Assembly (NCBI RefSeq): GCF_965229915.1 | Contig: NZ_CBDDJZ010000001.1 | Span: 4,739,171 to 4,803,170 of the forward strand | DNA from: Marinoscillum sp. | GTDB taxonomy: Bacteria; Bacteroidota; Bacteroidia; Cytophagales; Cyclobacteriaceae | Direction: 5' to 3' | Length of the DNA stretch: 64,000 bases | Part shown: piece by piece, positions 4,237-61,412 of the stretch | Position numbering within the stretch: position 1 is the stretch's first letter | How the letters are laid out: every line of letters starts with the position of its first letter | The notes under the pieces: generated by a model | What the model was told of the DNA's origin: nothing | Database searches by the model: none | What the model saw: the letters and a program-made list of their open reading frames with translations, nothing else | Position numbers and translations under genes: made by a program

Positions 4237-5373
4237 ATGAAAAAGAAATTATTTTTTGCAGCCATTGCCACAATGGTATGTTGGAGTATGTATGCACAGC
4301 TTCAGAGTTTGCCTCCTAGTGGTGCCAATCAACAAAGTGTTGTCAAACAGCACATTGGTGGTGTTGCCTGGGTAAAGATAAGTTACGGTAGTCCAGATGT
4401 AGCAGGTAGAGAGGGTCAGATATGGGGTCAGCTAGTACCTTACGGCAAGGCCAACCTTGGTTTTGGAGCCAGCACAGATGAGAATCCATCCCCATGGCGT
4501 GCGGGCGCCAATGAGAACACTGTTTTTGAGACTTCTCATGATATGCTGGTCCAGGGAGAGCTTTTACCGGCAGGTCGCTATGGTTTTTTTGTAGAGCCAA
4601 AGGAATCTGGGGATTGGGATATAATCTTCAGTAGTGAAGCCGATGCCTGGGGTAGTTTTTTCTACCAGCCGGAAGATGAGGTATTGCGAGTCCAGGCAAC
4701 TCCTCAGGACCTGAATGAATCAGTAGAATATCTGACTTATGACTTTACCAATCGCAAGGACGATCAGACTACTGTCAACCTGGAATGGGAAAAGAAGAGA
4801 TTGCCATTTACCGTGATGGTAAAAGATGCCAACGCACAAACGCTGAGTGCTTTACGAAGTGAGCTAAAGGATTCACCTGGTTTTACTTATACCAACTGGG
4901 TAGCTGCTGCGACCTGGGCATCAGGTGCCGGGTATCACGATGAGGCGATCAACTGGGCGGAAAATGCCATTTCCTTGCCGTTCATTGGTCAGCGAGATTT
5001 CTCTACGTTATCTACCAAAGCAATGGTGCTTCGCAATGCAGGGAAGGCGGAGGAAGCCAATAGCATCATGGATGAGGCGATCAACATGCCAGGAGCACCA
5101 GCATTTCAAGTTCATGCCTACGGGCGACAGCTCATTGCAGCCGGACAAAGTAAAAAGGCGCTTGAGGTTTTTCAGATCAATCACAAGAACAATGACGGTG
5201 CCTGGCCGACCAATTATGGACTTGCCAGGGGGTACTCCGCAGTAGGAGATTACAAAAAAGCTATCAAGTATTTGGAAATAGCTCTTACTAAAGTACCGGC
5301 AAACGATACCATGAATCCACCAATCATCCGGGCCAACCTGGACAAACTGAAAAAAGGCGAAGACATCAACTAA
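4237..5373 (+). CDS. DUF2911 domain protein with C-terminal TPR
   Basis: Signal peptide; SYGSP..GR..WG.LVPYG and PWRAGANENT motifs typical of DUF2911; helical TPR-like C-terminus. Confidence 0.85.
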   Translation: MKKKLFFAAIATMVCWSMYAQLQSLPPSGANQQSVVKQHIGGVAWVKISYGSPDVAGREGQIWGQLVPYGKANLGFGASTDENPSPWRAGANENTVFETSHDMLVQGELLPAGRYGFFVEPKESGDWDIIFSSEADAWGSFFYQPEDEVLRVQATPQDLNESVEYLTYDFTNRKDDQTTVNLEWEKKRLPFTVMVKDANAQTLSALRSELKDSPGFTYTNWVAAATWASGAGYHDEAINWAENAISLPFIGQRDFSTLSTKAMVLRNAGKAEEANSIMDEAINMPGAPAFQVHAYGRQLIAAGQSKKALEVFQINHKNNDGAWPTNYGLARGYSAVGDYKKAIKYLEIALTKVPANDTMNPPIIRANLDKLKKGEDIN

Positions 5374-21168: not shown

Positions 21169-23421
<2,253 letters not shown>

Positions 23422-57462: not shown

Positions 57463-57924
57463 TCAGAACTTCAAATGTCGATTCAAGCTCTCTTCCAGAG
57501 AGATGAATGTCTCCGTGCGTTCAATTCCTTCTACCTTCTGAATCTTGTCATGAAGCACATCTTTTAGGTGCTTGGTATCTCGGCAGTGAATCTTGATGAA
57601 AATGTTGTAGTTACCAGTGGTGTAATGCACTTTCACAATTTCTGGGATGTCCTTCAATTGCTCTACTACTGCGTCATATAAAGATGACTTCTGTAAATAG
57701 ATCCCCATGAAGCAGGTAACGTCATATCCAAGTTTGGAATAATCCATCTGAAGAGTAGTGCCTCTAACCACACCCATCTCTTCGAGTTTTTTCATCCGTA
57801 CGTGTACAGTACCACCTGAAACAAAGACCTTTTTAGCCACTTCCGTGTATGGAATTTTGGCGTCTTCCATCAATAAATTGAGGATTTTCAGGTCTACATT
57901 GTCAATTTCGTAATTTTTACTCAT
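57463..57924 (-). CDS. asnC: Lrp/AsnC family regulator, AsnC-like
   Basis: GTVHVR, LGYDVTCFMGIYL, YTTGNYNIFIK..CR and KIQ...I..TETFI match the E. coli AsnC pattern as I recall it (LGYDVGCFIGIIL, YTTGHYSIFIK). Confidence 0.88.
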   Translation of the reverse strand: MSKNYEIDNVDLKILNLLMEDAKIPYTEVAKKVFVSGGTVHVRMKKLEEMGVVRGTTLQMDYSKLGYDVTCFMGIYLQKSSLYDAVVEQLKDIPEIVKVHYTTGNYNIFIKIHCRDTKHLKDVLHDKIQKVEGIERTETFISLEESLNRHLKF

Positions 57925-58006
57925 CTCAAAAAGTCCTATTTTCTAATAATGCAATATTATATATTCAATTTTAAATGACATCTAAATATTTACCAAATTT
58001 ATTAAA

Positions 58007-58041
58007 ATATTTTTAAAAATATATTCAGTATGTTAATTTTG
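58007..58041 (+). promoter_or_regulatory. Bacteroidota sigma-70 promoter of the tRNA-like RNA with an overlapping palindrome
   Basis: TAATTTTG (TAnnTTTG) at 58034-58041; perfect 16-bp palindrome ATATTTTTAAAAATAT at 58007-58022 over the -33 region. Confidence 0.6.
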
Positions 58042-58079
58042 AATCATCAAACAATCGCAAAGACGTTGCGAGCACATAC

Positions 58080-58228
58080 TGTAAGGTGATGAAATTGGCA
58101 GACATGCCCTCCTGTCTCGGGGGTGGAGATAAGGGATAAATCTCGATCTCACGATAAATTACTCCGGTAATTTATCGTGACCAGAGACTAACTGCTCCGT
58201 GGAGGTTCGAATCCTTCCCTTACAGCCA
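58080..58228 (+). tRNA. atypical tRNA-like RNA, anticodon GTC (Asp), 77-nt variable arm
   Basis: Acceptor TGTAAGG/CCTTACA, then G73 and CCA; D arm ATG-AAATTGGCAGA-CAT; anticodon arm CCCTC-CTGTCTC-GGGGG; T arm GGAGG-TTCGAAT-CCTTC. Confidence 0.75.
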
Positions 58229-58280
58229 TCATTTTTGGGTTAATGTTGTTTATTGTCCAAAGGACTCCTTTGGAGAATCT

Positions 58281-58312
58281 GGTCGAGGTAGGGGTGCCTC
58301 GACCTTTTTCTT
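58281..58312 (+). terminator. intrinsic terminator of the tRNA-like transcript
   Basis: GGTCGAGG-TAGGGGTG-CCTCGACC followed by TTTTTCTTTTT. Confidence 0.85.
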
Positions 58313-58620
58313 TTTATAGGCACCAGATCGTTAACTTGACAACTTTTTTATTTTTTGGTCCTGATCATATCGGATGAAGAATCAATTCTATATATCAATC
58401 TTTCATAATTTGTGATTCTACGGATCAATCCGAAAACCTGTGGTGTAATTGTATTTATTTGAGGACGGGCATTCGTTCATTTTAGGTTTTACAGGCGAAA
58501 ATTGGATTAACGAATAAATGACTGTCTGAGCCTTGGATGTTCTCAATTGATAGTGCGCAAACGAAATGGCGAGTTTCTTTTATTCGCCAATTTTTGATTG
58601 GAAAAGCGTTAATAAATGAA

Positions 58621-58700
58621 CGCAGCCCCGGGGCGCGCAGCCTAGATTTTTGCCGGTTCGCCGATGCGACTACTTTTCATCAATGGAAAAGTAGGAGGCC
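58621..58700. repeat. GC-rich palindromic REP/MITE-like element
   Basis: GCCCCGGGGC palindrome and a CTACTTTTC-ATCAATG-GAAAAGTAG hairpin (58670-58694) in AT-rich intergenic DNA; other genomic copies cannot be checked from this window. Confidence 0.45.
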
Positions 58701-58824
58701 ACTACCTTGAAACTCAGAGAAGGTTCAGTGCATTTAAGAGAAGAAAATTTCAACCCTGTCTCTCAAGTCAATCAGGCTTTAACTAATAAATATGTAAGTC
58801 GCCCCACAGAAAAATTGCTTGATC

Positions 58825-59039
58825 CCTTCTCAACTTTCTTAATAATTGTTTTTGTATTAGAAGAACTGCTCCGTGGAGGTTCTGCCGTAGGCATTCCTTC
58901 GGAAGAATCCTTCCCTTACAGCCATCATTTTTGGGTTAATGTTGTTTATTGTCCAAAGGACTCCTTTGGAGAATGCGACCGGCAAGGTCTGGTCGAGGCA
59001 CCTGTGCCTGGCTACGCGCCCCGAACCTTTTTCTTTTAT
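58825..59039 (+). repeat. copy 2 of the tRNA-like 3' half, trailer and terminator (attR-like scar)
   Basis: 58864-58882 is identical to 58190-58208, and 58905-58974 is identical to 58209-58278 (70 nt); there is a 22-nt insertion in the T-loop and a degenerate terminator follows. Confidence 0.93.
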
Positions 59040-59092
59040 TGCCTTTTGCATTTTCAGGTTCATTTGGAAACACCCAGGTTTCTTGAACTCGA

Positions 59093-59445
59093 CCTTCTCA
59101 ACTTTCTTAATAATTGCTTTCGTATTAGAAGAACTGCTCTGTAGAGGTTCTGCCGTAGGCATTCCTTCGGAAGAAATCGATCGAAGGCAGGATGTGCGGC
59201 ATGGAGGTGCGTAAGAGTAATCCTTCCCTTAGAGCCATCATTTTTGTGCATGTCTTGACAAACTTGCTTTGTCATGGTCTATGCTGTCAACTTTGTTCGT
59301 CAGCATTAATGTTGGTTATTGTCCAAAGGACTGCTTTGGAGAATGCGGTATGCTAGGTTTGGACGAGGTATGGCGCACGGCTAGTGGCGCACGGCTAGTG
59401 GTTGCATTAGCTACGCCCCGGAACAAGGCGTCCCCACTTTTTTAT
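59093..59445 (+). repeat. copy 3 (more decayed) of the tRNA-like 3' module
   Basis: Shares a 39-nt upstream arm with copy 2 (37/39 identical, offset 268 nt), the same 22-nt T-loop insert, TCCTTCCCTTAGAGCCATCATTTTTG and TTATTGTCCAAAGGACTGCTTTGGAGAAT, with extra insertions. Confidence 0.88.
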
Positions 59446-59723
59446 TTTAGATAGGTTTTCATATCTGTGCTCCAAGGTTCTGGTTCGGGATCCCGAATTT
59501 AGATCTCAGATTTTTCTCTTTTGTAGCGCATCTATGAATAATTATGAATATGACACTAAATAAGGCTAAGCATTTAACTTTCAATTCGATTATGCTCGTT
59601 GAACTGTGAAGTTAATTACGTTTCACATGCCATGTTAGGAAAAATCGCAATGTCAGTTCTTTTGTCACTTTTTTAGGTTTGAATTGTTGACTTATATTTA
59701 ACTGAAAAATTCAAATTCCGAAA

Positions 59724-61412
59724 ATGAGTAAGCAACCCTGGTTATCTACCTACCCCGAAGGAGTTCCTAAATCAATTGATGCAGATAAGTATTCGTCACT
59801 TGCCGAGCTGTTCATAGAATCGCGCTCCAAGTATGCTAACCGACCTGCCTATGAAAATATGGGCAAGGTGATCACCTTTGAGGAGTTGGGTGAGCTGTCT
59901 GATCGTTTTGCCTCCTATTTACAAAATGATCTGGGTTTAAAACCAGGAGATAAACTAGCGATTCAGCTTCCGAATGTTATCCAGAATCCTGTGGTGATGT
60001 ATGGAGCTTTAAAAGCTGGTTTAGTAGTAGTGAATACCAACCCGCTCTACACACCATCAGAGATGCGCCATCAGTTCCGTGATTCTGGAGCTAAGGCAAT
60101 AGTGATTTTGGCCAATTTCGCATCCAATCTGGAGGAAATCTTGAAGGAAACAGCTATTGATCACGTAATCATTACCGAACTCGGGGATATGATTGGAGGG
60201 ATCAAGGGAGCGTTGGTCAACTTTGTGGTGAAGAAAATAAAGAAAATGGTGCCCAAGTATCATTTACCGGAAGCGATATCACTAAAGACGGTATTGAAGA
60301 ACTCAAGAGCCGAGTCATTTAAGGCGCCTGAGATCGGTGCTGAGGATCTAGCTTTTCTTCAATACACTGGAGGAACCACTGGGGTTTCGAAAGGGGCGAT
60401 GCTGACCCATCGAAACCTAATTGCGAATCTGCAGCAAATTGAGGCCTGGCTTGGCCAGACCAAAATGGAAGAAGGTCAGGAAATCTTCATAGCGGCGTTA
60501 CCTCTTTATCACATTTTCGCCTTAAATGCACATGCATTACTCCCGGCTAAGCTTGGTGCTAAAAACGTACTCATTACCAACCCTCGTGATATGCCCGGTT
60601 TTGTGAAGGAACTTAAAAAGCATCCATTTACACTAATCACCGGTGTAAATACCCTCTTCAATGGACTGTTGAATACTCCTGGTTTTGCAGACCTGGATCA
60701 TAGCACAATCAAGGTGGCACTTGCAGGTGGTATGGCCCTTCAGCGAGCTGTTTTTGATAAGTGGGAACGAACAACTGGAAAGCGAATAGCCGAGGCGTAT
60801 GGTCTTACAGAAACATCCCCAGGACTTTGCATCAATCCCCTGGCCGAAGGCAACCGAGTGGGTACTATTGGCTTGCCATTGCCCGAAACGGATATCAAAC
60901 TGCTAGATGATGAGGGAAATGAGGTAGCTGATGGTGAAAAGGGAGAGCTTTGTTGCAAAGGACCTCAGGTATTTAGTGGCTACTGGCAGCGGCAGGAAGA
61001 AACCCAAAACTGTATGATCAATGGTTATTTCAAAACGGGTGATATTGCTACAATGGATCCTGACGGGTATTTCAGAATTGTTGATCGTAAAAAAGAAATG
61101 ATTTTGGTATCGGGATTCAATGTGTATCCCAATGAAGTGGAGGATGCCATAGCCTCACACCCAAAAGTACTTGAAGTAGGTGCGATCGGAGTGCCAGATG
61201 CCAAATCAACTGAGGCAGTGAAAGTATATATTGTCAAGAGTGACGAATCTCTCACCGAGCAGGAAATCTTTGATTACTGTAAGGAAAACCTCACCGGGTA
61301 TAAACGTCCAAAGCATGTAGCGTTTACTGATGAACTTCCTAAATCCAATGTTGGGAAAATCTTAAGGAGAATCATCAAAGAGCAGGATGCTAAAGACAAT
61401 ACCTACGATTGA
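59724..61412 (+). CDS. fadD: long-chain-fatty-acid--CoA ligase
   Basis: LQYTGGTTGVSKGAML, EAYGLTETSPG, GYFKTGDIA, VSGFNVYPNEVE, KSNVGKILRR. Confidence 0.93.
   Translation: MSKQPWLSTYPEGVPKSIDADKYSSLAELFIESRSKYANRPAYENMGKVITFEELGELSDRFASYLQNDLGLKPGDKLAIQLPNVIQNPVVMYGALKAGLVVVNTNPLYTPSEMRHQFRDSGAKAIVILANFASNLEEILKETAIDHVIITELGDMIGGIKGALVNFVVKKIKKMVPKYHLPEAISLKTVLKNSRAESFKAPEIGAEDLAFLQYTGGTTGVSKGAMLTHRNLIANLQQIEAWLGQTKMEEGQEIFIAALPLYHIFALNAHALLPAKLGAKNVLITNPRDMPGFVKELKKHPFTLITGVNTLFNGLLNTPGFADLDHSTIKVALAGGMALQRAVFDKWERTTGKRIAEAYGLTETSPGLCINPLAEGNRVGTIGLPLPETDIKLLDDEGNEVADGEKGELCCKGPQVFSGYWQRQEETQNCMINGYFKTGDIATMDPDGYFRIVDRKKEMILVSGFNVYPNEVEDAIASHPKVLEVGAIGVPDAKSTEAVKVYIVKSDESLTEQEIFDYCKENLTGYKRPKHVAFTDELPKSNVGKILRRIIKEQDAKDNTYD

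Follow-up and report, generated by a model that had tools for sequence, protein, structure and literature searches.

How does a bacterial chromosome come to carry, in a row behind an intact tRNA-shaped RNA gene, further copies of that gene's 3' end? The question is raised by a stretch of 64,000 nucleotides (nt) from Marinoscillum sp. (contig NZ_CBDDJZ010000001.1, positions 4,739,171 to 4,803,170 of the forward strand; the whole stretch is called the window below), in which a module starting with AACTGCTC is present at 58190, within the intact gene, and again at 58864 and 59132. Where partial tRNA copies follow a tRNA gene, they are routinely taken for scars left by an integrase, and a first-pass annotation of this DNA explained the array in that way, as the remains of shrunken tyrosine-integrase islands; here the reading is testable, and it fails. 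Copies 2 and 3, which contain no gene, duplicate in tandem only the 3' part of a conserved gene, and it was the 268-nt unit 2 whose duplication gave rise to copy 3. As to the process behind them, we favour, with a probability of roughly 0.55, breaks directed at the T-loop and repaired into tandem duplications, in which a double hairpin inserted into the T-loop marks the spare copies. The genome under study is referred to as G000 and that of M. furvescens as G001; 14 Marinoscillum genomes were compared, among them also G002-G004, G006, G008 and G010-G013. The array is made up as follows.

58079-58228, plus strand: intact tRNA-shaped RNA gene, recognised by fold, conservation and covariation
58190..58315, plus strand: copy 1 of the module, comprising variable-arm end, T arm, CCA, trailer and terminator (58281-58315)
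58255..58274, plus strand: trailer double hairpin GTCC-AAA-GGAC, TCC-TTT-GGA, 20 nt, also at 58951-58970 and 59321-59340
58316..58824, no strand assigned: unit 1 spacer, 509 nt
58825..58863, plus strand: 39-nt arm, first copy, the 5' spacer end of unit 2
58864..59037, plus strand: copy 2 of the module, 96.2% identical to copy 1 apart from three clean insertions
58883..58904, plus strand: T-loop double hairpin TGCC-GTA-GGCA TTCC-TTC-GGAA, 22 nt, between GGTTC and GAATCC
58974..58987, plus strand: 14-nt insertion TGCGACCGGCAAGG ahead of the terminator of copy 2
59010-59021, plus strand: 12-nt insertion in the terminator loop of copy 2
59093..59131, plus strand: 39-nt arm, second copy, matching the first at 37/39 positions
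59132..59449, plus strand: copy 3 of the module, produced by tandem duplication of unit 2 (93% over arm and module) and with extra insertions
59151..59172, plus strand: T-loop double hairpin of copy 3, the same 22 nt
59175..59219, plus strand: second-tier 45-nt insert directly after the T-loop double hairpin of copy 3
59247..59305, plus strand: 59-nt hairpin-rich insertion in the trailer of copy 3
59371..59398, plus strand: two repeats of the 14-mer TGGCGCACGGCTAG inside the expanded terminator of copy 3

Alignment bears out the recurrence of the module noted at first pass. Copies 1 and 2 are identical over 19 nt (58190-58208 = 58864-58882) and again over 70 nt (58209-58278 = 58905-58974), with 127 of 132 aligned positions equal overall, and copies 2 and 3 are 93.1% identical; one exact repeat of 70 nt and one of 83 nt at 95% identity within 1.8 kb are far above chance. 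All copies hold the module as it had been described, except that copy 3 has CCTTAGAG where the others have CCTTACAG, and the 39-nt arm does indeed stand before copies 2 and 3 and not before copy 1. Since the T-loop insert, this arm and the two inserts of the terminator are all common to copies 2 and 3, which are 93% identical, copy 3 is a tandem duplicate of unit 2, an origin that the annotation had itself offered as an alternative. Its remark that decay grows with distance also holds, in the sense that the units gather more inserts the farther they lie from the gene: the terminator of copy 3 holds several additional insertions, and its 45-nt insert is 88% alike to an insert in the second partial copy of tRNA-Val(tac) (G000:C1:~2163600).

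The hairpin reported in the trailer is present and is in fact a 20-nt double-hairpin insert, set immediately 5' of GAATC; it is missing from the full genes of the sister species G001 and G003 and from a paralogue of the gene described below, and is present in the G001 units. We note that both kinds of double hairpin sit directly 5' of GAATC (trailer ATT^GAATCTGG, T-loop TTC^GAATCC), a common boundary which hints that the target is a short sequence rather than tRNA structure alone. Pfam searches of six open reading frames in the unit 1 spacer gave no domain match, tblastn with eight mini GIY-YIG proteins detected no nuclease remnant in it, and no homology to it was found in congeners. Nor is there a conserved Bacteroidota-type promoter ahead of the units. 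We considered whether the units could serve as alternative 3' halves of a split tRNA and dropped the idea, there being no 5' acceptor partner, no promoter and no known bacterial joining system.

That the parent RNA gene is conserved and presumably functional, as the first-pass annotation had supposed, and that it is structured are both supported by comparison with its relatives. Matches are found in 47 of 61 relatives, and among 105 diverse genes of the family the acceptor pairs are formed 7/7 in 104 and the T stem is fully paired in 102, with covariation at acceptor pairs 4-7. In the window the gene has an acceptor stem of 8 bp (CTGTAAGG/CCTTACAG), a class-II-like D arm, a 5-bp/7-nt hairpin with the loop CUGUCUC, a variable region of ~75 nt holding a perfect 14-bp hairpin (58149-58180), the T arm GGAGGTTCGAATCCTTCC at 58201-58218 and CCA at its 3' end; its folding energy is -54.7 kcal/mol (z = -3.9). 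Neither ARAGORN nor Rfam (at gathering thresholds and at E<=10) made a call for the gene or its partial copies. More than 118 contigs of Cytophagales and Chitinophagales contain an exact 29-mer from the 5' half of the gene, whose neighbours in the window are a divergent Lrp/AsnC regulator on one side and an AMP-binding acyl-CoA ligase on the other. Its promoter contributes one further feature, the sole exact TAnnTTTG in the correct position within 57900-59750.

58034..58041, plus strand: Bacteroidota-type -7 promoter box TAATTTTG of the intact gene, motif TAnnTTTG

The same locus in other Marinoscillum genomes shows how variable the array is. M. furvescens carries 16 units, each of ~300 nt, alongside its three full genes, G004 has four units and one full gene, and the close relative G003 has two units that have no T-loop insert and share with copy 2 the 5' boundary (AACT.CTC) and the 14-nt pre-terminator insert. 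Partial copies without the double hairpin also occur in G002/G012, and terminators alone are duplicated in G002 and G003. Array by array, the acceptor variant of the units is always that of the adjacent full gene, which argues for concerted evolution, and in G000 the trailer double hairpin, elsewhere a feature of units, stands in the trailer of the working gene, inside the 70-nt identical tract. The two observations together indicate gene conversion between gene and units, with transfer of the trailer double hairpin into the trailer of the working gene in this genome. In G011, the closest relative by acyl-CoA ligase, contig C288 breaks off (at 21646, L013) precisely where the T-loop of the tRNA-like gene begins, which is what one would expect if repetition of the tail had interrupted the assembly.

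A near-identical strain is represented by a metagenome contig (ERZ26052130 ctg8718l, L187), which is 99.2% identical over 1907 nt and in which the array is identical. The 11 sites at which it differs from the window (58137-58187, 58217) all lie inside the intact gene; ten of them form a cluster in the variable arm, in its lower stem, where the changes are compensatory, and the eleventh is a 1-nt insertion after the T stem. Judging from these alignments, the differences point to a patch that is hypervariable or has been converted, while the region around it is identical. The terminators vary in their own way, since the unit terminator loops of G001 contain the 14-mer TGGCGCACGGCTAG from 0 to 5 times. 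Such 14-mers (GGCGCACGGCTAGTGG-like; window 59371-59398, and L038 6220-6290 and 8900-8960) resemble the motif GGCGCCCGGCTAGGGG of a separate repeat family (G000:C1:4049181-4051250, 626600-627000), which flanks a third mini GIY-YIG subfamily with three gene copies at C1:4049181-4050941.

The 22-nt insert that splits the T-loops of copies 2 and 3 belongs to a family with the consensus TGCC-NNN-GGCA TYCC-NNN-GGRA between GGTTC and GAATCC. The 11 copies in this genome all follow (G)GTTC in one orientation, and each is located in a partial copy that has the matching intact gene upstream of it, at tRNA-Phe (two 206-nt units), tRNA-Val(tac) (two units), tRNA-Val(gac) (four fragments), tRNA-Thr(tgt), tRNA-Ser(gga) and the present array; a reversed-pattern control gave 0 matches. 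Across 24 distinct variants the stems are 98.4% paired and the loops vary freely, with one stem pair switching between UA and CG in seven of the 24. A single position, a single orientation and paired stems argue that these inserts are site-specific elements and not the outcome of random decay. Strict matches occur in 3 of the 14 Marinoscillum genomes (11, 20 and 12 copies), in none of the other 11, and in 1 of ~80 other genera sampled. Behind tRNA-Val(gac) (G000:C1:2975050-2975700, minus strand) the split fragments alternate between the tail of tRNA-Val and that of a second tRNA (…AATCCAATACACTCCA), for which no intact gene is present anywhere in the genome; this suggests that fragments can move or outlive their source gene. 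A link of the double hairpin to RAYT/Y1 transposases was ruled out, as a Y1 transposase (PF01797) is present in all 14 congeners, so that there is no correlation with a hairpin found in three.

What the double hairpin does accompany, at several loci, is genes for mini GIY-YIG nucleases. In this genome, open reading frames of ~80-100 amino acids that hold only the GIY-YIG domain (PF01541) lie directly behind tRNA-Met, tRNA-His and tRNA-Ser(gga), with three tandem 418-nt GIY-YIG cassettes behind tRNA-His. At tRNA-Ser(gga) the order is tRNA, GIY-YIG gene (~80 amino acids; G000:C1:1441027-1441263) and a partial copy bearing the double hairpin, and the orthologous arrangement is found in G004. In G100, from another genus, three GIY-YIG genes stand behind tRNA-Ser(tga), with two tandem 374-nt units that each consist of a pseudo-tRNA and the next nuclease gene, and a further partial copy ending the array; double hairpins interrupt its pseudo-tRNAs at two places, the anticodon loop and the T-loop. 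The same nuclease subfamily, at 52-58% identity, lies beside partial tRNA-Ser copies in four further genera (G070, G063, G091, G113), and these copies have loop inserts of the double-hairpin type, in G070 a variant of the family described above. A nuclease of this subfamily with at least 62% identity is found only in the three double-hairpin-bearing Marinoscillum genomes, the match in G001 covering the first 53 residues only, as a truncated copy. Judged by one marker gene, these three are not a clade, acyl-CoA ligase identity being 91% for G011, 88% for G004, 86% for G003 and G010 and 78% for G001. Other mini GIY-YIG cassettes stand upstream of an intact tRNA (Arg-acg, Ser-tga; L174 1400-1900 in G012, L183, L185, L186) and carry 5' partial copies, hairpin-split in the D-loop or the anticodon loop, the mirror image of the 3' arrangement.

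With these data at hand the explanations can be weighed, beginning with the islands. Tyrosine-integrase islands duplicate the 3' ends of tRNA genes as attL and attR, with sublocations in the T-loop and the anticodon loop, and tRNA-type genes are classic integration sites; the array resembles such duplications in having partial 3' copies in direct orientation behind an intact, restored gene, with a boundary near the T arm. The genome does hold one such island, which serves as a control: at tRNA-Pro(tgg), G000:C1:489725-527447, 37.6 kb with an adjacent tyrosine integrase (domain 490837-491250) end in an attR that is a bare 17-nt direct repeat, AATCCTGCCACCCCGAC, running from the start of the T-loop to the end of the tRNA, with unrelated flanks, just upstream of tRNA-Pro(agg). 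In the array, by contrast, there is neither integrase nor cargo, an insert breaks up the T-loop, the units recur in multiple copies at periods of ~270-700 nt, and homology between copies continues ~90 nt past CCA, through trailer and terminator. The proposal that islands had shrunk to about 550 and about 50 nt meets the same obstacles, the nearest of the nine PF00589 genes of the genome lying 120 kb away. Nor does the 39-nt arm look like the end of an element: it occurs only twice, both times in this array; arm plus core had no match in 185,579 species (one genome per species) or in phages, and the whole array region had none in phages. The annotation had itself named the lack of a larger element at this locus in relatives as evidence against its reading, and comparison of the locus revealed no island in G001-G004, G006, G008, G010, G012 or G013, only RNA genes and units; the 16 near-identical ~300-nt units of G001 cannot be 16 independently shrunken islands. 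The gene may thus be called a hotspot, as had been proposed, for events that duplicate its 3' end, and not for integration by islands. The array lacks every defining feature of integrase att scars that was tested, and shrunken attR-type scars are a most improbable origin for the copies.

Simple tandem duplication, by slippage or unequal crossing-over at short repeats, combined with independent palindrome inserts (REP-like or from template switching) and with no T-loop nuclease, accounts for the hairpin-free units of G003 and G002/G012, for unit 3 as a tandem duplicate, for the terminators duplicated by themselves in G002 and G003, for the 14-mer expansion in terminator loops, as slippage predicts, and for an array without a nuclease gene. 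It does not explain why a 22-nt hairpin should be confined to T-loops, always at the same position and pointing the same way, at no fewer than six unlinked loci, be all-or-none per genome, and abut GIY-YIG genes at tRNA-Ser loci of several genera, or why partial copies should cluster behind tRNA-type genes and not behind genes in general, and Y1/RAYT-type transposases are present in all 14 congeners regardless of the hairpin; we consider this explanation unlikely. REP, BIME and REPIN repeats, mobilised by RAYT, and the palindromic elements of Rickettsia, which insert into RNA and protein genes, do resemble the double hairpins as tiny palindromes with conserved stems and variable loops that are tolerated in loops of structured genes. 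The hairpins differ from REP/REPIN-RAYT systems in having ~11-20 copies per genome, only at TTC^GAAT of spare tRNA T-loops, and in being associated with GIY-YIG genes, not with Y1; every defining feature of REP/RAYT repeats that was tested is absent from the array. A different view would make the units working small RNA (sRNA) genes, whose product, a T-arm and acceptor-tail RNA stabilised by mini hairpins, might, for example, be a partner of the molecule that binds the tRNA-like RNA, or a decoy for it. An intrinsic terminator is kept in every unit, hairpin stems show compensatory changes beside drifting loops, the acceptor strand of units co-varies with the neighbouring full gene, and arrays persist in several species. 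Against this, exact TAnnTTTG occurs at the full gene only and a near-match ahead of unit 2 no longer survives in unit 3, and the lack of a conserved promoter speaks against independent sRNA genes; from species to species the spacers show no relationship, the hairpin is missing from the G003 units and from 11 of 14 congeners and is found in partial copies of unrelated tRNAs, inserts multiply with distance, and gene conversion explains the concerted evolution equally well. Working sRNA genes therefore seem quite improbable.

The explanation we favour is that the universal T-loop sequence GGTTCGAATCC is the target of DNA breaks, the likely agents being the mini GIY-YIG nucleases parked behind tRNA genes. 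Repair of the breaks by unequal or microhomology-mediated recombination would yield head-to-tail duplicates of T arm, tail, trailer and terminator, and through the same repair the working gene and its spare tails would often undergo gene conversion with each other. The double hairpin would be copied into redundant T-loops only, because it would kill a working copy, and the split copies would persist, because the hairpin splits the target sequence, and would gather further small hairpin inserts. On this proposal the tRNA-like gene would be targeted because its T arm is canonical; that an uncatalogued tRNA-shaped RNA is treated like a tRNA would in turn be independent evidence, at the DNA level, of a canonical T arm. 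In a more specific form, which we regard as possible and put forward tentatively, the double hairpin would be a minimal protein-free homing element, disrupting its site and copied by break repair into TTC^GAAT of redundant copies after cleavage in trans by a GIY-YIG protein of ~80 amino acids, and hairpin and nuclease would together form an undescribed class of selfish system acting on the tails of tRNA and tRNA-like genes in Bacteroidota, which it would duplicate, mark and remodel.

Several observations weigh against breakage by these nucleases. No GIY-YIG gene or remnant is present in or beside this array, and none stands beside the tRNA-like gene in any of 159 loci. The hairpin-free partial copies of congeners that lack the hairpin (G003, G002/G012) imply that duplication and hairpin insertion are separable, and that duplication need not involve this nuclease. 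The proteins of ~80 amino acids are the catalytic domain only and lack the DNA-binding domains carried by free-standing homing endonucleases of the SegB or I-TevI type, so that specificity for the T-loop is unproven and the enzymes may be structure-specific; an enzyme that cut every T-loop should moreover be toxic. The co-occurrence of hairpin and nuclease is based on few genomes and one marker gene, and the absence of unit polymorphism in the near-identical strain gives no sign of ongoing activity.

The nearest known parallel is in phages. SegB is described as a free-standing GIY-YIG homing endonuclease of the tRNA cluster of T-even (T4/T6) phages (PMC2330249; PMC13096335) that cuts inside tRNA genes at RAWTSGAAC and drives, through microhomology, head-to-tail segmental amplification of a tRNA-containing unit (PMC13096335). 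The complement of its motif, GTTCSAWTY, corresponds, in our own reading, to the T-loop. A GIY-YIG gene among tRNA genes has its counterpart here in the mini GIY-YIG genes directly behind tRNAs of the same genome, head-to-tail units with a segment of a tRNA-type gene are likewise found, and the double-hairpin junction element of the array is the one that abuts nuclease genes in the SegB-like cassettes at tRNA-Ser(gga) of G000 and G004 and tRNA-Ser(tga) of G100. The differences are that the setting here is a bacterial chromosome, that partial genes are duplicated and that the array has no nuclease gene. SegB as characterised is also a larger protein with extra domains, in contrast to the ~80-amino-acid catalytic domains seen here. 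Term searches of PMC13096335 showed no T-loop double-hairpin insert, and literature searches for T-loop double hairpins in partial tRNA copies or for chromosomal mini GIY-YIG cassettes returned only the SegB papers. On balance the array appears to work most like SegB-type nuclease-driven amplification at tRNA genes, minus the nuclease gene in the unit. The data thus point to a small nuclease-linked process at the T-loop, the "most conserved DNA word in biology", that would duplicate gene tails and leave a diagnostic 22-nt double hairpin; if the nuclease link holds, segmental amplification of the SegB type extends from phages to bacterial chromosomes, and a new kind of micro mobile element is defined. 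For work on the mechanism, the cultured type strain M. furvescens DSM 4134 with its 16-unit array is a tractable system.

The tRNA-shaped gene itself has relatives of several kinds. Its paralogue at G000:C1:643890-644153, minus strand (= L007 ~4890-5150, minus strand), is 80% identical to it, with compensatory changes in acceptor and variable-arm stems, and carries TACTTTTG where the intact gene has its -7 box. Neither an encoded CCA (…CAGCTATTTTT) nor a trailer double hairpin is present in this paralogue, and it is not followed by partial copies; in G003 and G010 it shares one locus with the first gene. A variable-region motif, GGGTTGACCAC, is conserved in many family members from Saprospiraceae and Cytophagaceae (e.g. 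L042, L046, L055, L081) and is lacking from the Marinoscillum tRNA-like genes. In some Marinoscillum species the locus between Lrp regulator and ligase holds only a mini version of ~60 nt, composed of acceptor, one D-like hairpin and T arm, which keeps the same trailer and terminator as the full gene, and in a Roseivirgaceae metagenome-assembled genome the full gene is followed by a mini version (mini versions at L035 1465-1525 in G008, L029 on the reverse strand in G013, also L025 ~1640-1710).

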